A stretch of 64,000 bases of DNA, from positions 188,796 through 252,795 of the forward strand of contig PCXY01000005.1 of the NCBI GenBank assembly GCA_002762785.1, read 5' to 3'. This document shows positions 7,084 to 48,910 of the stretch, piece by piece (within the stretch, counting starts at the first letter, position 1; each line of letters starts with the position of its first letter). The stretch is from Candidatus Woesearchaeota archaeon CG10_big_fil_rev_8_21_14_0_10_45_16. GTDB lineage: Archaea > Nanobdellota > Nanobdellia > Woesearchaeales > GW2011-AR9. Made by a program: the position numbers and the translations under genes. Under the pieces are notes generated by a model. That model was not told the origin of the DNA. It worked only from the letters and a program-made list of their open reading frames with translations, and ran no database searches.

Positions 7084-7141
7084 ATCAATAGCCTGCCTGC
7101 TAAATTCTTTTTGATGGTTTGGTATCCCGCCAACTATCTCT

Positions 7142-8593
7142 TCAGAACTGGAAGTAGAAGAACTGTACTGTCTGGGTCGGGCTGAAGAAGTACAGCAGCA
7201 GACACATCCCCGTGAGATAGATGGTCCATTCAAAATAACCTTTCTGGGCGACGGAAGAGACAAAACCCCTCTTGAAATAAGTCAGAGTATGTATGATCAT
7301 AAATACGATGACGAAAAATAAAGGCACCTGAAACTGCGGCAGGAGGCTGCCAAGCTGGGCTGACCATCCCGAGAAGTCAACAAAGATAAACTTCTTGACC
7401 GCATAGAGGATGTAAGAAGGATCATAGAGGCGGAAGATAAGGAGCGACAACACGAAAAGGTATAATGTGAAGAGGGTCTTGATGAGATTATGAAAACGAG
7501 GGAATGAAGATAATTTAGTCTTTACAGCCAGACGCTGGCGCCAGTCCCGGGTAGCCATGCCGATCAGCAGGAAAACTCCATGTAAAGTTCCCCAAATCAC
7601 GAAGTTCCAGCCAGCGCCGTGCCAGAGGCCGCTAGTAAAATAGACGATAAGGACAGAAATATAAAGCCTAGTCTTGGTGAAACCTTTTCTCATCAGCGGC
7701 ATAAACAGATAATCACGGAACCAGGTTGAGAGAGAGATGTGCCAGCGCTTCCAGAACTCAGCGATCGTCTTGGAGAAGAACGGCTTGTCAAAGTTAAGAG
7801 GGAAATGGAAACCCATGATCCTGGCCAGGCCGATAGCGACGTCAGAATATCCTGAAAAATCGCAATAGACCTGGATGGTGAAAGCGATAGCGCCGACGAT
7901 GATGGGAATACTTCCCGGGTAGGCTGTCGGATCGGCAAAAAAGACGTTGACAAAAGCAGCGATATTGTCAGCGATAACCATCTTCTTGACCAGACCCCAC
8001 ATCACCAAAGCCATGCCGTGCTTGAAGTTTTCTTGGGTGATGGTGATCGGCTTGTCAAGCTGCGGCAGCAGGTCAGAAGCGCGGATGATCGGACCGGCTA
8101 CCAGCTGCGGGAAAAATGAGACGTACAAGGCAAATCTCAGGAAGGAGTCTGTCGGTTTCAGCTTGCGGAAATAGATATCCAGCGTGTAACTCATGGTCTG
8201 GAAGGTGAAGAACGATATCCCGATCGGCAGGATGATGTGGGCTAACGGCAGATGGGGATCATTGCCGAACCAGGAAGCGACCATATTTGTCGTCTTTATA
8301 GCAAAGTTAGTGTACTTAAAGAAAGCCAGGACTCCCAGGTTGCCGATGAGACTGACGGCAAGATACCACTTTCTGTTCTTATCGCTTTTCGAATCATGGA
8401 TAGCTTTCCCACAGAAAAAATCCAGCAAAGAAGAAAACAACAAGAGGACGACCAAAGGGCCGCTTGAAAAATAGTAGAAAAAGTAGCTGGCGAAGAGCAA
8501 GAACAGATACTGGTACTTCCTAGTTTTTACAATCAGAAGGAATAAAAGAACAACAACAGCAAAATAGAGGAAAGGAACGCTGTTAAATAACAT
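7142..8593 (-). CDS. MBOAT family membrane O-acyltransferase of the DltB/AlgI type
   Basis: The conserved His motif 'WHISLSTWFRDYLFMPL' is present in a polytopic protein. The start was trimmed to the 'MLFNSVPFLYF' Met so that it no longer overlaps the upstream gene. Confidence 0.8.
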   Translation of the reverse strand: MLFNSVPFLYFAVVVLLFLLIVKTRKYQYLFLLFASYFFYYFSSGPLVVLLLFSSLLDFFCGKAIHDSKSDKNRKWYLAVSLIGNLGVLAFFKYTNFAIKTTNMVASWFGNDPHLPLAHIILPIGISFFTFQTMSYTLDIYFRKLKPTDSFLRFALYVSFFPQLVAGPIIRASDLLPQLDKPITITQENFKHGMALVMWGLVKKMVIADNIAAFVNVFFADPTAYPGSIPIIVGAIAFTIQVYCDFSGYSDVAIGLARIMGFHFPLNFDKPFFSKTIAEFWKRWHISLSTWFRDYLFMPLMRKGFTKTRLYISVLIVYFTSGLWHGAGWNFVIWGTLHGVFLLIGMATRDWRQRLAVKTKLSSFPRFHNLIKTLFTLYLFVLSLLIFRLYDPSYILYAVKKFIFVDFSGWSAQLGSLLPQFQVPLFFVIVFMIIHTLTYFKRGFVSSVAQKGYFEWTIYLTGMCLLLYFFSPTQTVQFFYFQF

Positions 8594-9551
8594 CGTACTC
8601 ACCCCTGGCGATACGTTCCGATAACAGGCGTGAGCCTTCACGGTTTAGGTGTGTAAGGTCGGTGAAATATTCAGCAGAAAAATCGGTTTCGATGTTGACA
8701 AGCCTGAAGCCGATGATCTCTGACAATCCTTGGATGTAATCATTATACTGCTGAAGAGAATCGGCAGGAACAACGTTAAAGGTAATAGGATTCATCGGCA
8801 TCTGGACGACGACCACTTCGATACCTTCTGCTTTTAAAGAAGCGGTGAGATACGCAAATGCTTCCCTCTCTCTTCGCGGGTGATCACCAAAACTGAATAT
8901 GCCCAAGACTTTTGGATCCTGAAGCTTTTGTTCCAGTTCTTCCGCTGATTGGATATCCTCAAACTGATGGGGATTCTTTAGGTTGTTACCAGCAGGTACA
9001 ACAGCTTCCGAGGAAGAGGACCGGTGCAGGAAACTCAGGAAGTAAGGAAGGATGAATTTTCTTTTGTAAAGAAGACGCTGGAACCTGTTCATGGAGATCA
9101 GTTCCAGTTCGTCGCTATCTAGTCTCTCCAAAAGATAGGAAGAAGGGGTGACGGATGATGACATCAACATGAAGAAATCGTCGTTCTGGTTGATGGTCTC
9201 ATCAAATGATGCAGGAGTGATGCCGATCACGACCTTGCTTGGTCTAGCAGAGATTATCAAATCTTTCTGAAGAGCTACTTGGAACGGCCTCATGCCAGCT
9301 ACGCCTAGGTTGAAGCACGGCGGAGAATCTTTGAGAAGATCCTCGATGACCGTGCAGTCGACATCTTCCCTGATCTGGCTGTCCCCTACAAATAAGATAC
9401 TCCCGTCTGGAACTTCAGCATAAAGATGAAGAACCTCCACGAAATGATTGCCCTGAGCGCCGAACTGAGAGAAATTATAAGCGAAAGAGCAGTAGAGGCC
9501 GGTACTAAGAAGGACTGCCAACAATGGAAAAAACAGATACTTCAGGTTCAT
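8583..9551 (-). CDS. SGNH-hydrolase-like protein of the DltD/AlgX type
   Basis: An N-terminal hydrophobic anchor is followed by block I 'FVGDSQ' and block V 'DLTHLN'. Confidence 0.55.
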   Translation of the reverse strand: MNLKYLFFPLLAVLLSTGLYCSFAYNFSQFGAQGNHFVEVLHLYAEVPDGSILFVGDSQIREDVDCTVIEDLLKDSPPCFNLGVAGMRPFQVALQKDLIISARPSKVVIGITPASFDETINQNDDFFMLMSSSVTPSSYLLERLDSDELELISMNRFQRLLYKRKFILPYFLSFLHRSSSSEAVVPAGNNLKNPHQFEDIQSAEELEQKLQDPKVLGIFSFGDHPRREREAFAYLTASLKAEGIEVVVVQMPMNPITFNVVPADSLQQYNDYIQGLSEIIGFRLVNIETDFSAEYFTDLTHLNREGSRLLSERIARGEYDVI

Positions 9552-18841: not shown

Positions 18842-20017
18842 ATGCTTATGAAAACGGTGGTCGTATCAGGATACTTTAACCCTATCCATAGAGGTCATGT
18901 CTCTTTATTCAAAGAAGCCCGTAAATTAGGCGAAAAGTTGATCGTCATCGTCAACAATGATAAACAGGTTCTGATAAAAGGTTCTCAAGCTTTCATGGAT
19001 GAAGAAGAGAGGAAATACATCCTCGAATCCATCCGTTATGTGGATGAAGTGGTCGTTTCCATCGATGAGGACGGCACCCAATGCAGGACTTTAGAGATGC
19101 TCAAGCCCGATATCTTTGCCAACGGCGGAGACAGGAAAAATACCAGTGATATCCCGGAAGCCAAGGTCTGCGAAAGATTAGGCATCCAGATGATCTTCAA
19201 CGTCGGCGGCGACAAGACCCAGAGCAGCAGCTGGCTGTTAGGCAGTGTCAAAGGACCTTCAATTCTCGATGAATACGATCAGACCAAGCATGGTGACAAA
19301 AAAGTCCTGATCGCGGATGTGGACGAGACCATCTGCGAGACCTGTCAGGAGATATCATCGGAGATGGCGGTCGAGATAGATCGGTTGGTAAAACAAGGCT
19401 ATACCTGGGCCTTCATCAGCGGCACCAAAGTTGATGACTTGCAGAAGATGATCTCCTCCAAAGTGAAAGAAGAACATCATCTATTAGCGACGACCGGCAC
19501 CAATTATGTGAAAGTAACTCCTCAAGGAAATGATCTTATCTATCAACAATCTTTCTCCACTGAACAAAAGCAAGAGATCATGGCAGCGTTAGACAAGGTG
19601 ATCACCCATTTCGACATAAGGGCCATGACCACCAAAGAAGACCAGGTCCAAGATAGGGATTCACAGATCACCTTATCTGCTATCGGCAGAAATGCGCCTA
19701 TAGAACTAAAGAAACAATATGATCCAGATGGTGAGAAACGAAAAGTCTGGATAGGATATCTGCAAGATCTTCTTGGAGATAGATATGATTACAAGATCGG
19801 CGGTACTACCTCTTTAGACATCACCCAGAAAGGCTTAGACAAAGAATGGGGTATCAAAGAGTTTGCTAAACAGAACAACATCCTTTTGAAAGAGATTTTA
19901 TTCTTTGGTGACAAGATCTATCCCGGCGGCAACGATTACCCTGCTTCCAAGATAGTTGATTGCATCGCTGTCAAGAATCCGGAAGATACGTTAAGAGAGT
20001 TGAGGAAGATACCATGA
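18842..20017 (+). CDS. Bifunctional protein with an N-terminal RfaE-II/TagD-like nucleotidyltransferase domain (HxGH) and a C-terminal HAD-superfamily phosphatase domain
   Basis: The nucleotidyltransferase motif is 'VVSGYFNPIHRGHV'. HAD motif I is 'LIADVDETICET'. Confidence 0.6.
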   Translation: MLMKTVVVSGYFNPIHRGHVSLFKEARKLGEKLIVIVNNDKQVLIKGSQAFMDEEERKYILESIRYVDEVVVSIDEDGTQCRTLEMLKPDIFANGGDRKNTSDIPEAKVCERLGIQMIFNVGGDKTQSSSWLLGSVKGPSILDEYDQTKHGDKKVLIADVDETICETCQEISSEMAVEIDRLVKQGYTWAFISGTKVDDLQKMISSKVKEEHHLLATTGTNYVKVTPQGNDLIYQQSFSTEQKQEIMAALDKVITHFDIRAMTTKEDQVQDRDSQITLSAIGRNAPIELKKQYDPDGEKRKVWIGYLQDLLGDRYDYKIGGTTSLDITQKGLDKEWGIKEFAKQNNILLKEILFFGDKIYPGGNDYPASKIVDCIAVKNPEDTLRELRKIP

Positions 20018-20863: not shown

Positions 20864-21772
20864 ATGGACGAGGAGACTCTCAAGAAATGTATCAAAGCGG
20901 GAAAGATCGCTGCTCAGGTGCGAAGGGAAGGCGCTGAGAAGCTGGCCAAGCCAGGAACATCGTTCCTGGAAGTGATGGACCATTGCGAAAAAAGGATCCT
21001 GCAGCTAGGCGGTCAGATTGCCTGGGCCCAGATGGCTCTTAACGACGTCGCTGCTCATTTCTGCCCGGAAGAAGATGATGCTCAAGTTTCTAGAGAAGGC
21101 GACCTGATCAAGATCGACATCGGTGTCCACCAAGAGGGTTATATCGCCGATAATGCCATGACCGTGCAGGTAAAGACCAAAGAACATTCCGAACTTATCA
21201 AAGCCGCACAGAACGCCTTGAGATCGGCCGTAAAATTAGTAGAACCAGGACGACAGCTCTGGGAGTTAGGCGAAGCGCAGTATTCTGAAGCGGAAGCGTT
21301 AGGCTTTACAACAGTAAAAAACTTATCTGGCCATACCCTTGAACAGTATAAAGTTCACGCCGGCGTGTCCATCCCTGCTTTTAACACCAAAGAAAAAACC
21401 CAGCTGAAAGCAGGCTGGCAGATCGCCATCGAACCATTCGTCACGCCTGGACAAGGTCTTATCAAAGAGAAAGGAAAAGCTACTATCTTTATGGTCCATA
21501 AACAAGGCGGCGCCAGGACACCTTATGCCCGCAAGATATTGGACGAAGTGAAATCCCAGAATGGATTGCCATTTACCACTAGATGGCTCACCAGGAAATT
21601 CGGCAAAGGACCGACGGCGTTAGGCTTGCGCGAACTGGAAAGGACAGGCATCCTGCATAGTTATCCACCATTGGCAGAAGTATCTTCCGGCTTAGTATCA
21701 CAGTTTGAACATTCTATGATAGTTTCTGAGAAGACGAAAGTGTATACCAGACATGAAGACGATACGTGGTAG
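20864..21772 (+). CDS. map: Methionine aminopeptidase, type 2 (archaeal)
   Basis: The layout 'KAGKIAAQV ... DVAAHF ... IKIDIGVHQEGYIADNA ... SGHTL' matches the MAP2 fold at 302 aa. Confidence 0.85.
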   Translation: MDEETLKKCIKAGKIAAQVRREGAEKLAKPGTSFLEVMDHCEKRILQLGGQIAWAQMALNDVAAHFCPEEDDAQVSREGDLIKIDIGVHQEGYIADNAMTVQVKTKEHSELIKAAQNALRSAVKLVEPGRQLWELGEAQYSEAEALGFTTVKNLSGHTLEQYKVHAGVSIPAFNTKEKTQLKAGWQIAIEPFVTPGQGLIKEKGKATIFMVHKQGGARTPYARKILDEVKSQNGLPFTTRWLTRKFGKGPTALGLRELERTGILHSYPPLAEVSSGLVSQFEHSMIVSEKTKVYTRHEDDTW

Positions 21773-21820
21773 ACGTGAGATATATTGAGGGGTGCTTAAT
21801 GATTACCCTTCATTAAAGAA

Positions 21821-22120
21821 CTAAACAAAAATAAGTATTGATTGAATTACTTTAAAAGCATTCTTTGTATTGACGCAATCAGTAAGATAAGATTTTCCAT
21901 CAGCAGACACCAATTTCAGTTGTCCGATTTTTGCGGACAACTCAAAACCTTCATCAGTAAGTCTATTTTTAAGATCAGACCAATACTTTCGAGCTCGATC
22001 GCTTTCGGTCAATGCCCCTACAATGTCAACTACAGAAAACCACCATTCATCATTAAACCAGGTTCTCCTAATAGCTTTATCTTGGAAAACAATTAACCCC
22101 TTTTTAGATTCCTCAACCAT
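21821..22120 (-). CDS. Bro-N domain protein, a truncated paralog of the DinD-like gene at 48089-48910
   Basis: The segment 'IRRTWFNDEWWFSVVDIVGALTESDRARKYW' closely matches 'IRKTWHKGEWWFSVVDVVGILSESDDARNYW' in the N-terminus of the 273-aa gene. Confidence 0.5.
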   Translation of the reverse strand: MVEESKKGLIVFQDKAIRRTWFNDEWWFSVVDIVGALTESDRARKYWSDLKNRLTDEGFELSAKIGQLKLVSADGKSYLTDCVNTKNAFKVIQSILIFV

Positions 22121-22206
22121 CTTTTATATTAAAATGACTTTGAATTTAAATAATTAGCTTTTATCTGGAGGTGAAACCAGACCATTCAATCTTGGCAGTA
22201 CCACTC

Positions 22207-23055
22207 TCAGAAAAAGAAAAACCTCTTACGGACAGCAGGAGGGATCTCTTCCTCTACCGCCAGCTCTAAACCGCCGGAGGCATCAGAGATTTTTGAAAGG
22301 CGACCTTCAGCAGATTCCGGCGCGACATGAAGACCTTGCGAGGATCTTTTACGCTTCGCGAACGCCTCCGGCGTATGGGCTGCCAGCAGGAAACGGCCGG
22401 AGATGCTAAGGTTGATATTGCCACCGGCGTTGGACCTGTTGCTAAGATCATTGACGCAGGCCGCCAAAACTGTATCTGTTTTAACTCTTGGGGGGGCAAA
22501 AAAAACCATCAGAGCGTCTGGCTTACCGCTCTCATGCCAAGTGATGTCACGAAATTGCCGCAATAGCGCCACGTCATCCTCCAACACAGCGCGCCAACCG
22601 GCATGGTCTTCAATCTTGGCGTATGGCAACGGCTCATTATAGATCCCTTCTGAACTATCAAGTGGAATGCCATCGACGGAAGAGTAAGGGATTTCAAAAA
22701 AAAAGCCTTTAAAATGCTTCGGAATCTTTATCAATGGGATACATTCTCGGGCAAATTGAAACTTTGTGCTATTCTCCTCATACGCAAAAGCACTGCACGT
22801 ATCGAGCCAGTCACCCCATAATCTCTTACGCTCTGCCTGGCTTTTATCGTAACGTTCATAATCATCGACCTTCGCTTCAACCGTCTCTTTGAAAGTCATA
22901 GCCCTGTAGATGCTGGAACCGTTAAGCAATTGCAATCTCGGCTGAGCAGTATTTTCATCTTTTATGCACTTCTCCCGCAAAGCATGAACCCCTAGGGCAT
23001 AGGTGCCCATCCTGGGAAGGGAGGTATATTCCTTGTCAAAGTCCGGAGTAACCAT
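22207..23055 (-). CDS. Hypothetical protein that looks GC-rich relative to its neighbours, with no recognised family
   Basis: This 282-aa ORF contains T8 and C7 homopolymer runs in the coding strand that encode 'FFAPP'. Confidence 0.5.
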   Translation of the reverse strand: MVTPDFDKEYTSLPRMGTYALGVHALREKCIKDENTAQPRLQLLNGSSIYRAMTFKETVEAKVDDYERYDKSQAERKRLWGDWLDTCSAFAYEENSTKFQFARECIPLIKIPKHFKGFFFEIPYSSVDGIPLDSSEGIYNEPLPYAKIEDHAGWRAVLEDDVALLRQFRDITWHESGKPDALMVFFAPPRVKTDTVLAACVNDLSNRSNAGGNINLSISGRFLLAAHTPEAFAKRKRSSQGLHVAPESAEGRLSKISDASGGLELAVEEEIPPAVRKRFFFF

Positions 23056-23117
23056 AATGAGCTTAATAGAATAGCTACTTTATAAATTTTGCCACTATTT
23101 AGTGACACTGCTCAGAG

Positions 23118-23279
23118 TTACGGTTTCTTCAATCTTGGCAGCACCCAATAGGCAAACACGGCAGCCACCACGATCACGCTCCAGAAGACGATATCTGGAA
23201 TCAAGCGTAATGCAAAAAGGATCAGATTAGCGATAATGACGATCAAAAAAAAGATGCCGATAACTTTAGCCGGTTTCAT
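23118..23279 (-). CDS. Putative 53-aa two-TM membrane peptide translationally coupled to hisS
   Basis: Its ATG overlaps the hisS stop as ATGA. The hydrophobic sequence is 'MKPAKVIGIFFLIVIIANLILFALRLIPDIVFWSVIVVAAVFAYWVLPRLKKP'. It is absent from the ORF track because it is shorter than 60 aa. Confidence 0.3.
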   Translation of the reverse strand: MKPAKVIGIFFLIVIIANLILFALRLIPDIVFWSVIVVAAVFAYWVLPRLKKP

Positions 23280-24607
23280 CCTAGTCTCTTGATAACGTCT
23301 TTAACGCTCAACACTTGTTCAGTGCCGTCAGTCATGTTCCGGAGTACAACTTTCTTCTTCTTCAGCTCGTCTTCACCGAGGATGAGGGCATAAGGGATGC
23401 CGACAGAACCGGCATATTCCAGATTCTTGCTGACGCCTTTCCTGAAGGCAAAGTCAACATTGATACCGGCTTCCCGTAGTTCCTTCGCCATCTTTAACGA
23501 TTCAGTCATCGTATTGATAGGGATCACATACACTTGAGCTGTTGTCCTTTTCTGAAAACCTTCCTTCTCCTTCAACACTTCCATCAGTGGAACCAGACCG
23601 AAAGCGATACCTACTGCCGGTGTATCTCGGCCGGAGAACTTGCCGATCATGTCATCCCATCTGCCGCCGGCTGCCAGAGAAGAGGTGATGGAACTCTTCT
23701 TGGCAAAGGCTTCATAGACCGTACCAGTGTAATAGGCTAATCCTCTAGCAAGAGAAACATCAAACTTGACAGTTGAAACTCCCATCACTTTCAGATACGA
23801 GAACAGTTCTTCCATCTCAGCAATACCTTGCTGCGCTTCTTCATTCTTGATCTTTTTTAAAGTCTTGAGAGTAGCTTTCTCGGTAACATAGGAAAACAGC
23901 GCATCGGTCTGTTTCTTAGAATAACCACGCTGTTTCAGCTCTTCAGAAACACCGCCCTTACCGATCTTGTCTAACTTGTCGATGGCGACGATGGCCGACC
24001 CTTTATCTTTTATCCCGGCTTCCTCAAGAATACCATTTAAGATCATTCTATTATTTACCTTGATGACAACATCCATGCTCAGATCATTGAAGACCTTTTC
24101 AGCTATCGCCAGCAGTTCCGCTTCCGCCAGCATCGACTTTACGCCGATAGTGTCAGCATCACACTGCCAGAACTGCCGCACCCGGCCTTTCTTGATCGGC
24201 CCGTCTCTGAAGACCGGACCCATCTCATACCTCTTGAACGGTAATTTCAGCATCGGATTAGCAGCCATATATCTTGCTAACGGAACCGTCAGGTCGAAAC
24301 GCAATCCTAATTTCCGGTTGCCTTGATCCTTCAGCTTGAAGATCTCTTTCAGAGCGTCGGAAGATTCACCGGCAGCAAATTTAGCAGCCAGGGTTTCATA
24401 GCGTTCGATGATCGGTGTCTCCAACGGCGCGAAGCCATACGATTCAAAAGCCGATCTGATGGTGTTCACTACTTTGTTCTGCATGATCTTCTCTTCCGGC
24501 GAGATGTCTGAAACCCCCTTAGCTGTCTGAAAGTCCATTTTCCTATCCTCGATGATTGTTTTGGTGTTTATAAGGTTTTTTCCGTCAAGTTTCATTTTTA
24601 CCTCCAT
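23276..24607 (-). CDS. hisS: Histidyl-tRNA synthetase
   Basis: Class II aaRS motifs with HisRS-specific 'AAGGRWD' are present, as is a C-terminal anticodon-binding domain. An alternative start lies 4 codons in at 24595. Confidence 0.85.
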   Translation of the reverse strand: MEVKMKLDGKNLINTKTIIEDRKMDFQTAKGVSDISPEEKIMQNKVVNTIRSAFESYGFAPLETPIIERYETLAAKFAAGESSDALKEIFKLKDQGNRKLGLRFDLTVPLARYMAANPMLKLPFKRYEMGPVFRDGPIKKGRVRQFWQCDADTIGVKSMLAEAELLAIAEKVFNDLSMDVVIKVNNRMILNGILEEAGIKDKGSAIVAIDKLDKIGKGGVSEELKQRGYSKKQTDALFSYVTEKATLKTLKKIKNEEAQQGIAEMEELFSYLKVMGVSTVKFDVSLARGLAYYTGTVYEAFAKKSSITSSLAAGGRWDDMIGKFSGRDTPAVGIAFGLVPLMEVLKEKEGFQKRTTAQVYVIPINTMTESLKMAKELREAGINVDFAFRKGVSKNLEYAGSVGIPYALILGEDELKKKKVVLRNMTDGTEQVLSVKDVIKRLG

Positions 24608-24832: not shown

Positions 24833-24895
24833 CCAGGCGGCTTTGAAGGCCTGCCGAGGAGAATTGAACTCCTGTCTCTTGAGTCACAGTCAAGA
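24833..24895. other. Three consecutive perfect stem-loops in the hisS upstream region, with unknown function
   Basis: The hairpins are 'caggc...gcctg', 'aggag aattgaa ctcct' and 'tcttga gtcacag tcaaga', with stems of 5, 5 and 6 bp. Confidence 0.3.
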
Positions 24896-25072
24896 ATCTT
24901 ACCATTAGAAGACGGCAAGCATAAGAAACGATGTGTGGGCTTTCGCCTAACGATGATGCAGAGAACTATCTATACTTTTCAAGACAGAGCAATAACTAGA
25001 AAAATCACCGACAATGAATACAATCAACTCGTGTCATAAGTATCTAAAAATAGTATTTCATTAAAAATGTTT

Positions 25073-25756
25073 CTATAGATAACTGCGAAGATGCTTGCCC
25101 AAAGTCAAGAAACCGGCAGCGCTCATACCGTAAGCCACAGTATAAAGAATGTCCGCGACCACAAGGAATCCGATGTCGTAGATAACATCTCCCAAGAGGA
25201 TGCCCAAGCTGGCGAAAAAGAAGATAGACAGAGGCTTGCTGATCGGACCAAGCTCTTTTGAAAAGATGAACGAACAGCTGGCCAGGGCTACGATCAATGA
25301 ACTGACTATCGGATAGAGATACAAGAAGAACGATTCAAGCGGACTTACGACACTGAACAAGATATAGGCAGAGATACCCAACAATACGGCAGCGATGCCA
25401 AAGATAGCCAGGATCTTCTGAAAGTTAGACGTACGCCTGAACAAAACGATCACCAAAGCCAGGAAAGAGAGGATGATGAAAAACGCTCCTGCTGTCCAGT
25501 AGACGTCGCCGATACCGACAAGACCGGTGCTGTTAAGGACGTTGATGTCCAGGAAATACGAGACTTCACCCAAGGCGTAAAGGAAATATCCTGAGACCAA
25601 GAAAAACAAGATGAAATAATTGGCGTCATCAAAAAGAGTCTTTAGCTTGTTGTTGAAAAGATGGGCCAAAGTGACAACTCCAGCTACAGCGGCCAAGCCC
25701 GCAAGAATCACTGCCAGATAAGCAAATATAGTGCTTAGATCCATCACCATGAACAT
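25073..25756 (-). CDS. Polytopic membrane protein of unknown function
   Basis: This 227-aa protein has 6 or more hydrophobic helices and matches no recognisable family. Confidence 0.45.
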   Translation of the reverse strand: MFMVMDLSTIFAYLAVILAGLAAVAGVVTLAHLFNNKLKTLFDDANYFILFFLVSGYFLYALGEVSYFLDINVLNSTGLVGIGDVYWTAGAFFIILSFLALVIVLFRRTSNFQKILAIFGIAAVLLGISAYILFSVVSPLESFFLYLYPIVSSLIVALASCSFIFSKELGPISKPLSIFFFASLGILLGDVIYDIGFLVVADILYTVAYGMSAAGFLTLGKHLRSYL

Positions 25757-25810
25757 AAAGGAAAGAAAACCAGTATTTAAAACATTCGTTTACAGGATAG
25801 AGATAAAGAG

Positions 25811-25898
25811 GGCAGCTGGGGGGAATCGAACCCCCTCCACAGGTTTGCTGCAACCTAACTCCACAGACCCGTATACTAGCCGTTATACTACAGCCGCC
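25811..25898 (-). tRNA. tRNA-His (anticodon GUG) with a genomically encoded G-1 and a 15-nt intron after position 37
   Basis: The T-arm 'GGGGG TTCGATT CCCCC' is intact and the acceptor stem GCGGCTG pairs with CAGCTGC. G-1 opposes the C73 discriminator, which is the His identity element. The anticodon loop reads 'CTGTGGA', and the 3' half 'ACCTG' pairs with 'CGGGT' after removal of 'AGTTAGGTTGCAGCA' (about 25846-25860). CCA is not encoded. Confidence 0.65.
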
Positions 25899-48088: not shown

Positions 48089-48910
48089 TTACTTAAGGAG
48101 TCTACTTCTTTTAAGATGTAAATAATTTTTGCCGGAAACTACTTTTTCGCCCGTTTCTGCTTCGAGCTGCTTCCTAGCGACGCCAGCAACAGCCCCACCT
48201 TTTCGTGCAGCATCTCGATTCTCAGAAAAACCTTGCGCATCATTTTTACGGGCTATCTTTGTCGTTGAAGCCTCGCCCAGCATCGTGAATATCAATTCTA
48301 GATCATCCATGTGGTCGCGCAGATTCTCATGTTGAAGATTCTTAATTTCTTTATGTTCTCGAGGACTAAGATCAAAAGTAGCTTTAGATATTTCTGATGT
48401 TAGGATGGCAAATTCCTTTTTCCTTTCCACGCCCCTCTTATCCCATTCATCCGTCAATTCGTCTCTGATGGCGATGCCTCTCACCCTTCTTTCGATCCAA
48501 TCGTTGGGGTAACCTTTAGCTTTGTAGAGCTCTTTCATCCGTTTTTGAGCTAGTTCAGGATTTTCAATCTCTTTGACACGTTCGTAACCCACTTTAGCCA
48601 GCCACAACTTAAATGGCTCCGCTTTCTTGGAGGGGATAGACTGGATTAACCTAAAAGCGCCTTCAGTGTTGATGCAGTCTGTTAACCTCATCTTACTGTC
48701 GTTGGCCACCATCTTCAACCGGTTACAATTTGTAACCGTTTCAACCGATCCCTCCTGAAGAAGCCTATGCTTCAAAACTTTCCAGTAATTCCGAGCATCA
48801 TCACTTTCAGACAAGATACCAACGACATCAACGACAGAAAACCACCACTCTCCCTTATGCCAAGTCTTCCGTATGCTCTTACCTTCAAAGACAGCGATCG
48901 TGTTTTCCAT
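48089..48910 (-). CDS. DinD-like protein (Bro-N domain plus a DNA-damage-inducible protein D-like C-terminal domain)
   Basis: The N-terminal Bro-N segment is 'KTWHKGEWWFSVVDVVGIL'. The C-terminal 'HKEIKNLQHENLRDHMDDLELIFTMLGEASTTKIA' resembles DinD/KilA-C. Confidence 0.6.
   Translation of the reverse strand: MENTIAVFEGKSIRKTWHKGEWWFSVVDVVGILSESDDARNYWKVLKHRLLQEGSVETVTNCNRLKMVANDSKMRLTDCINTEGAFRLIQSIPSKKAEPFKLWLAKVGYERVKEIENPELAQKRMKELYKAKGYPNDWIERRVRGIAIRDELTDEWDKRGVERKKEFAILTSEISKATFDLSPREHKEIKNLQHENLRDHMDDLELIFTMLGEASTTKIARKNDAQGFSENRDAARKGGAVAGVARKQLEAETGEKVVSGKNYLHLKRSRLLK

Follow-up and report, generated by a model that had tools for sequence, protein, structure and literature searches.

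Diversity-generating retroelements (DGRs), AvpA-type target proteins and partial DGRs are all known from DPANN archaea. AvpA (PDB 5IOO) is a DGR variable protein of Nanoarchaeota, and AvpA homologues have also been described outside DGRs (Handa et al. 2016, PMC5006420). The partial DGRs of DUSEL4 Nanoarchaeota consist of a target gene with its variable region (VR) and cis elements and are without a reverse transcriptase (RT); whether such copies are fossils or remote targets was left open (Paul et al. 2015, PMC4372165). The locus considered here is found in a 64,000-nt stretch of DNA from a Candidatus Woesearchaeota genome, recovered from the Crystal Geyser sample CG10_big_fil_rev_8_21_14_0.10; this whole stretch is referred to as the window. 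Between the genes map and hisS it carries a gene for a 282-aa protein that is very probably a ligand-binding protein of the AvpA subclass of the C-type-lectin fold and a member of a DGR target family of DPANN archaea. With much the same confidence, the locus as a whole is taken to be a partial DGR and a Bro-N gene fragment in a variable insertion slot.

The ORFs (open reading frames) claimed by the original prediction for the space between map and hisS are present as it gave them. PIN73386.1 (COV20_04110) and PIN73385.1 (COV20_04105) are the protein records at the island, and the genes are arranged as follows:

20864-21772, plus strand: map, type-2 methionine aminopeptidase (Peptidase_M24), in convergent orientation to the hisS operon; bounds the slot on the map side

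21821-22120, minus strand: 99-aa ORF, an N-terminal Bro-N/PDC-S13-type fragment with GC 0.353, recognised by family matches and alignment to a paralogue

22207-23055, minus strand: PIN73386.1, the 282-aa AvpA-like C-type-lectin-fold protein, a homologue of DGR variable proteins

23118-23279, minus strand: membrane ORF of 53 aa that overlaps the stop codon of hisS; marks where the slot had its ancestral edge

23276-24607, minus strand: hisS

The spacers are 48 nt between map and the 99-aa ORF, 86 nt between the 99-aa and 282-aa ORFs, and 62 nt between the 282-aa and 53-aa ORFs.

The 282-aa protein had been described as lacking a recognisable family. As far as Pfam, NCBIfam, PHROGs and PADLOC go this is right, as it has no match there; a Pfam scan of 65 family members also gave none, and at E values up to 10 a family profile retrieved no PDB sequence. 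An exhaustive phmmer search and a comparison of folds show otherwise. With the 282-aa protein as query, phmmer returned 316 representative clusters at E<1e-3, or 33 when the threshold is E<1e-30, and the closest homologue found by word index, P0002 on contig L001, shows 41% identity. The phmmer matches mostly end at query positions 223-229, and the VR is therefore right at the C-terminal end in family proteins. Structure prediction with AlphaFold2 needed an alignment: a single-sequence run gave a pLDDT (predicted local distance difference test) of 31, and an alignment of 65 sequences gave a model with pLDDT 89 and a predicted template modelling score (pTM) of 0.81. Foldseek with this model reached E 6e-8, and the protein has the C-type-lectin fold of the AvpA subclass. 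Both the confident model and the presence of the family-conserved residues indicate an intact gene.

When ten family sequences were used as query against GTDB genomes, 37 family loci were found, nearly all in metagenome-assembled genomes (MAGs) labelled Woesearchaeota, Nanoarchaeota or "archaeon", together with a few records labelled Methanosarcinales. Domain arrangements in the family are not uniform. For example, P0004 consists of two fused variable-protein domains, each with its own VR-like C-terminal motif, and P0006, judged by eye, has an N-terminal Ser/Thr-kinase-like region, apparently hydrophobic stretches, and a C-terminal variable domain.

Homologues of the 282-aa protein are demonstrable DGR targets. 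In L001, a contig of 2.3 kb, the 3' end of the P0002 gene is present again as a 93-nt direct repeat 367 nt downstream. The two copies show 15 differences, 14 of them with A in the downstream copy, and an RT ORF with the motif YVDD comes directly after it. The repeat, the adenine-biased differences and the RT together constitute the signature of a DGR; the downstream copy, which encodes FVNNLNNNSNANGNNNLNNNGSFLRITH, is the template repeat (TR) and the copy at the gene 3' end is the VR. In other family loci the differences between VR and TR also fall at TR adenines: 10/10 in L006, 14/16 in L007, 14/19 in L008, 11/14 in L011, 16/20 in L022, 11/11 in L024, 10/11 in L036 and 14/14 in L041. With L001, nine loci thus have a VR/TR pair with adenine-specific differences. 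Of the 37 GTDB loci, eight contain an RT of one clade, which in seven comes directly downstream of the gene, while roughly half have neither TR nor RT within 6 kb. Tandem arrays of paralogues occur in several.

In intact cassettes of the family, a TR rich in AAY (asparagine codons) and the RT are situated just downstream of the target gene. An error-prone cDNA of the TR, substituted at template adenines, replaces the VR at the gene 3' end, and some 13 residues of the binding site are rewritten in this way. Not all loci have the compact arrangement. In L024 (JAUYPT010000036.1, 4203-5572) a family member and its TR are located between thermosome and CDP-alcohol phosphatidyltransferase-like genes with no RT within reach, so that TR and RT are separable in these genomes. 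In L025 (DUIB01000055.1, 5824-7626) a family gene, a TR-like Asn-rich segment and an RT follow one another in a single frame; the sequence contains Ns, and the assembly has probably collapsed the VR onto the TR.

The window copy has the C-terminal part expected of such a target, and the features at its 3' end are these:

22375-22473, minus strand: VR-equivalent segment (aa 195-227), in register with nine TR/VR pairs and homologous to the VR/TR repeats of intact cassettes

22399-22452, minus strand: hypervariable block of 13 codons (aa 202, 203, 205-207, 209, 211, 213-215, 217-219), where family TRs carry AAY

22362-22374, minus strand: hairpin ACGCC-GGA-GGCGT, GC-rich, following closely on the VR where family members have theirs; encodes TPEA

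22210-22368, minus strand: C-terminal tail of 53 aa (aa 230-282), absent from most homologues

The C-terminal VR is in register with the TRs and its variable codons occupy the AAY positions. At the 13 positions the window has AAT GAT AGC AAC AGG AAC GGT AAT ATC AAC AGC ATC TCC. Twelve of these have C or T in the third position (NNY), as expected from adenine-mutagenized AAY, with conserved scaffold codons (L, S, A, G, L, G, F) in between.

In DGRs such as that of Bordetella phage, a hairpin located downstream of the VR serves in target recognition. In the present family a perfect stem of at least 5 bp with a loop of 3-4 nt (5 nt in one case) follows 18 of 30 VRs and none of seven TRs. These hairpins lie 8-19 nt past the F-L-R motif, and their GC-rich stems vary in sequence with complementarity kept. 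The argument for a hairpin rests on this conserved position and changing stem sequence, not on stability. The window hairpin, with a 5-bp stem and a 3-nt loop, may serve as a target-recognition element, by analogy with known systems.

Most homologues stop in or next to the hairpin loop, as in L001 with CCG TAG GCG. In the window the loop codon is GAG, not TAG or TAA, and the ORF runs 53 codons further. From residue ~241 the confidence of the tail model falls to pLDDT about 50-68. Weak similarity to the tails of P0007 (E 0.04) and P0105 (E 0.009) is found via the motif GRLS..SD.SGG. In L019 (6739-7197) a family gene with a normal end is followed downstream by an ORF of its own that resembles the tail, and the tail may therefore derive from an element that was once separate. 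At locus L043 the tailed P0105 is followed, 27 nt on, by another paralogue. A decayed TR in the tail or in the region after the gene was considered and rejected, as the TR profile matches the VR only.

The position of the gene is an insertion relative to related genomes. The closest syntenic locus is in L024, a Nanoarchaeota MAG whose map is 73% identical. Its gene order is thermosome, the family gene with its TR, the CDP-alcohol phosphatidyltransferase-like gene, tRNA-His, hisS, a 59-aa membrane ORF and map, and the membrane ORF is separated from map by 14 nt with no extra genes. A metagenome scan with map gave 80 loci, 52 of which hold both map and the convergent hisS side. By tblastn, the small membrane ORF beside hisS was detected in L024 and in 40 of the map loci. 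Among these 40 loci, 11 have a spacer of 8-23 nt, one of 84 nt, 25 of 385-1314 nt and three of more than 3 kb; in the window the slot filling amounts to 1,345 nt. The cargo of the slot is unrelated from one locus to the next; judged by eye, it includes membrane proteins of DedA-like type, secreted proteins and what may be a toxin-antitoxin pair. Neither a family gene nor a Bro-N gene is present in the slot at any of the 52 related map/hisS junctions. The earlier suggestion of an insertion between map and hisS is thus borne out by synteny with L024 and these junctions. No integrase or transposase was found in the 1.35-kb island segment.

The 282-aa gene is bracketed by a direct repeat:

22185-22202, no strand assigned: direct-repeat copy B, TTCAATCTTGGCAGTACC, 4 nt past the stop of the 282-aa gene

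23128-23145, no strand assigned: direct-repeat copy A, TTCAATCTTGGCAGCACC, in the last codons (WVLPRL) of the 53-aa membrane ORF

23079-23086, minus strand: TATA-box-like motif TTTATAAA, read from the sequence, 24-31 nt upstream of the 282-aa gene ATG

The 18-nt repeat is identical at 17 of 18 positions and brackets a unit of 943 nt that contains the promoter region and the 282-aa gene. At up to two mismatches it occurs as these two copies only in the window, and the maximum in the shuffle null was 14 nt. From what is generally known of archaeal promoters, TTTATAAA is a possible promoter of the gene's own, with a leaderless transcript. The arrangement fits a 943-nt unit that would have been inserted separately from the AT-rich Bro-N fragment. 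Flanking repeats as a general feature of stand-alone family genes were considered and rejected; the long matches at L008, L011, L013 and L021 appear to be neighbouring paralogue copies.

Other family genes and DGRs have been detected in the vicinity of map. L089 (Ga0209542_10000626), with 74% map identity, carries a complete DGR directly downstream of map at 7124-9352. It is made up of an RT, a TR (8226-8318) and a VR (8703-8795), the VR being in a 276-aa gene of a different family; in this 93-nt VR/TR pair 9/9 differences fall on template adenines. Members of the 282-aa family that are only distantly similar (26-34% identity) are found 2.5-4.7 kb upstream of map in L049 (2952-3506), L083 (1286-1948) and L103 (3092-3646). 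Family genes thus recur near map, at positions that differ between relatives.

The second gene of the island, the 99-aa ORF, had been predicted to be a truncated Bro-N gene paralogous to another gene in the window, and both statements agree with the profile searches and alignment. The paralogue is listed here:

48089-48910, minus strand: full-length 273-aa Bro-N/PDC-S13 paralogue with a Bro-N domain (PDC-S13 E 4e-120, profile positions 2-271 of 286)

The 99-aa ORF matches Pfam Bro-N at E 5.8e-5 with 24.1 bits, slightly below the cutoff of 25.6 bits. The match to PADLOC PDC-S13 (E 1e-33) covers profile positions 4-95 of 286 only, and that to phrog_15286 covers positions 3-95 of 274, so that both end at profile position 95. 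Residues 5-92 of the 273-aa protein align with 56% identity (E 1e-32). The ORF is a truncated copy because the likeness to the paralogue stops at aa 95 and gives way to four unrelated residues and a stop, with no more than 48 nt left before the map stop codon. It does not have the full-length PDC-S13 architecture of ~275-290 aa, the C-terminal two thirds being missing. At 56% identity the fragment is not a recent duplicate of the resident paralogue. Its GC content of 0.353 (1.5th percentile) is a real outlier that had gone unmentioned and suggests a separate, foreign origin. The 282-aa gene, in contrast, had been noted for a GC higher than its surroundings. The direction is right (0.490 against a window mean of 0.456), but the difference is mild (85th percentile) and lies in the 3' third, with 0.57 in the VR and 0.525 in the tail.

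A pattern scan of IMG/VR found neither the Bro-N paralogue nor the 282-aa family, and the idea of a viral origin was dropped. Full-length PDC-S13/Bro-N homologues do occur within a few kb of family genes in L025 (2758-3558) and L032 (1145-1939), and in L088 (3967-4704) one is found ~1.3 kb beyond hisS. The recurrence of PDC-S13 with family genes is mild, with ~0.4 expected by chance among 37 loci. The earlier term "degraded integrated element" suits the Bro-N fragment, and the DGR in so far as it is an incomplete cassette; it does not suit the 282-aa gene itself, which is intact.

A complete DGR cassette, with a cognate TR and a DGR-clade RT, was not found within the 64-kb window. An adenine-tolerant scan gave, elsewhere in the window, at least 27 non-adenine mismatches over 96 nt. 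The single nhmmer match of the TR profile in the window is at 22386-22456 (E 2.4e-8), inside the VR, and the VR was also the sole match in the window to a degenerate TR pattern at up to three mismatches. When the L001 RT was compared with the window by tblastn nothing significant was found (best E 0.022). The sequence also appears to be invariant. Four further assemblies, two from JGI and one each from Logan and ENA, represent different samples or runs and match the window at 100% identity over 1.7-13 kb, VR and homopolymers included, and among the five assemblies no heterogeneity confined to the adenine-templated positions of the VR is seen at the consensus level. The 90% identity clusters of both island proteins have one member each.

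These results are best accommodated by a target gene with a previously diversified VR and a downstream hairpin that has parted from its template and enzyme, the copy now being, most likely, a frozen binder of fixed specificity. The 282-aa unit would have arrived, with the 18-nt direct repeat on either side, in the slot that separates the hisS operon from map; replacement of the stop codon in the hairpin loop would have added the 53-aa tail; and the AT-rich truncated Bro-N/PDC-S13 gene beside it would have been acquired independently. As against a copy that is still rewritten from a distance, the evidence leans to a frozen one because the sequence is invariant across assemblies, the AGG codon does not fit the pattern, the stretch upstream of the VR departs from that of the family and the stop codon has been lost.

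The alternative is an active remote target, for which a TR and RT elsewhere in the genome would rewrite 22399-22452 in trans via the VR 3' end and the hairpin. Here it is the less probable reading, though a serious one, and remote diversification is among the two readings that Paul et al. (PMC4372165) offer for partial DGRs. It stays alive because the hairpin is retained; the VR 3' end is kept as well, and of the 13 hypervariable codons 12 retain an NNY form derivable from AAY. The family's DGR components are dispersed, as illustrated by L024, which has VR and TR but no RT nearby, and by the roughly half of loci with neither TR nor RT within 6 kb, and an RT of this clade (COV17_01915) is present in another Woesearchaeote from the same sample. 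Against it are the failure to find TR and RT in the window and the identity of the five assemblies, with a one-member cluster at 90%. The hypervariable codon AGG is not derivable from AAY, and LAACV upstream of the VR departs from the LRALFV encoded by family TRs. A weaker point is that no COV20-labelled RT is among the best 120 of 4781 and the best 120 of 1887 matches in the RT searches. The available part of the Roux et al. (2021) listing for metagenome 3300004210 shows no DGR on contig Ga0066639_10000008, which is also weak evidence.

Several observations weigh against a frozen copy or the wider reading of the locus. The absence of TR and RT applies to the 64-kb window, and a TR and RT at a remote site are possible; L024, with VR and TR and no RT nearby, is an instance of components scattered in family genomes. 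The retained hairpin and near-clean NNY footprint fit a usable target as well as a recent fossil, and the window hairpin is thermodynamically unexceptional by itself (z -0.68). The identity of the assemblies is at the consensus level and probably reflects one aquifer population at Crystal Geyser. Sequence identity of the family to AvpA is 12-13%, and the AvpA link is one of fold. Finally, an 18-nt repeat of this kind is seen at this one locus; it is missing from other stand-alone loci, and no stand-alone single-copy family locus examined shows an insertion-site repeat.

A frozen former target is also to be preferred to a paralogue that was never diversified, that is, a plain C-type-lectin-fold protein with a likeness to VRs from shared ancestry alone. 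Such proteins have precedent in the three AvpA homologues outside DGRs (PMC5006420), and the lack of a TR or RT nearby and the C-terminal tail, atypical for the family, are in keeping with one. This explanation is nevertheless improbable. The AAY positions of nine independent TRs hold varied residues in the window protein (N,D,S,N,R,N,G,N,I,N,S,I,S), and the third codon position is C or T in most of them; the scaffold codons in between are conserved; and the VR-specific hairpin, absent after 7/7 TRs, is present.

The original prediction took the 282-aa protein for a defence or abortive-infection candidate whose frame might switch at homopolymers. The runs it named exist, and the A9 run, which it had placed nearby, is inside the same coding sequence:

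22490-22505, minus strand: T8-G-C7 on the coding strand (G7 22490-22496 and A8 22498-22505 on the plus strand), encoding FFAPP just upstream of the VR

22696-22704, minus strand: T9 on the coding strand (A9 on the plus strand), encoding FFF inside the 282-aa coding sequence

In the window as a whole, homopolymer runs are about as numerous as expected (29 against 23.5 for length at least 7, and 6 against 6.9 for length at least 8). Three of the 29 fall within the 849-nt gene, where ~0.4 would be expected, and the G7 is the sole G/C run of at least 7 in the window. Despite this local excess and the membership of the neighbouring fragment in a PADLOC defence-candidate family (PDC-S13), a phase-variable defence gene switched in frame or expression by slipped-strand mispairing at T8, C7 or T9 is very improbable, since tract lengths are constant across all five assemblies at the consensus level, the tracts simply encode FF, PP and FFF inside a confidently modelled domain, a shift at T8/C7 would merely truncate the protein ahead of the VR, and the 282-aa protein, without a PADLOC or PHROG match, is already explained as an AvpA-like DGR variable protein.

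Some further features of the neighbourhood were observed. Two tRNA-His(GTG) genes are present on the minus strand beyond hisS, at 24848-24919 and 25810-25897. The latter is the orthologue of the single tRNA-His of L024 and contains a 15-nt insertion directly past the anticodon region, probably an intron; the copy adjoining hisS (24848-24919) is divergent, with roughly 60% identity. Between the two is a 227-aa membrane ORF (25073-25756) that is absent in L024, and this region may represent a second insertion event in the same neighbourhood. On the other side of the island, a 391-aa ORF (18842-20017, plus strand) has a cytidylyltransferase-like N-terminus and a phosphomannomutase/HAD-like C-terminus, and may be a fused sugar-nucleotide pathway enzyme.

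The locus leaves the knowledge of how DGRs work unchanged. What is new is the placement of an unannotated sequence family, its conserved hairpin, its tailed variants and the variable hisS/map slot. PIN73386.1 and a family of more than 300 clusters without a Pfam model can now be read as an AvpA-like target family of DPANN DGRs, and the window provides a concrete, well-bounded example of a target parted from template and enzyme. In this lineage the junction of hisS and map is a slot of variable content, and one relative has a complete DGR in it. A bolder proposal, speculative and rather unlikely as a whole, is that DGR target genes of Woesearchaeota move as small stand-alone cassettes (here 943 nt, with promoter, gene, VR and hairpin, and an 18-nt duplication of the host-gene 3' end) and insert at a recombination hot spot flanked by the hisS operon and map. 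In a sub-lineage with the window gene, P0007 and P0105 the hairpin stop would then have become a sense codon, giving a tailed, no longer diversified binder whose DGR-written specificity is in permanent host use.

The known systems resemble the locus to different degrees. The bacterial and phage variable proteins Mtd, TvpA and TaqVP show a much weaker structural likeness, belong to the FGE-type subclass and differ in domain context. Proteins of the Bro-N/PADLOC PDC-S13 type share the N-terminal Bro-N-like domain with the 99-aa ORF; unlike them, the ORF has no C-terminal two thirds, its GC is 0.353 against 0.456 for the window, and any function of it would be hypothetical. Like AvpA, the 282-aa protein has a VR near the C-terminus with ~12-13 AAY-templated variable residues and comes from a DPANN host, and members of its family adjoin a TR and RT. 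It differs from AvpA in that its family, at 12-13% identity, is a separate one without a Pfam model, whose profile finds no PDB sequence, and in that the window copy is without TR or RT within 64 kb and has a 53-aa tail past the VR. The partial DGRs of DUSEL4 share with it a stand-alone target gene with an adenine-mutagenesis footprint in the VR, retained elements that are putatively cis-acting, no adjacent RT, and the same choice between fossil and remote target. In contrast to these, the window copy is of a different protein family and host lineage (Woesearchaeota), and is placed in a defined hisS/map slot with an 18-nt repeat and a truncated Bro-N gene as neighbour.

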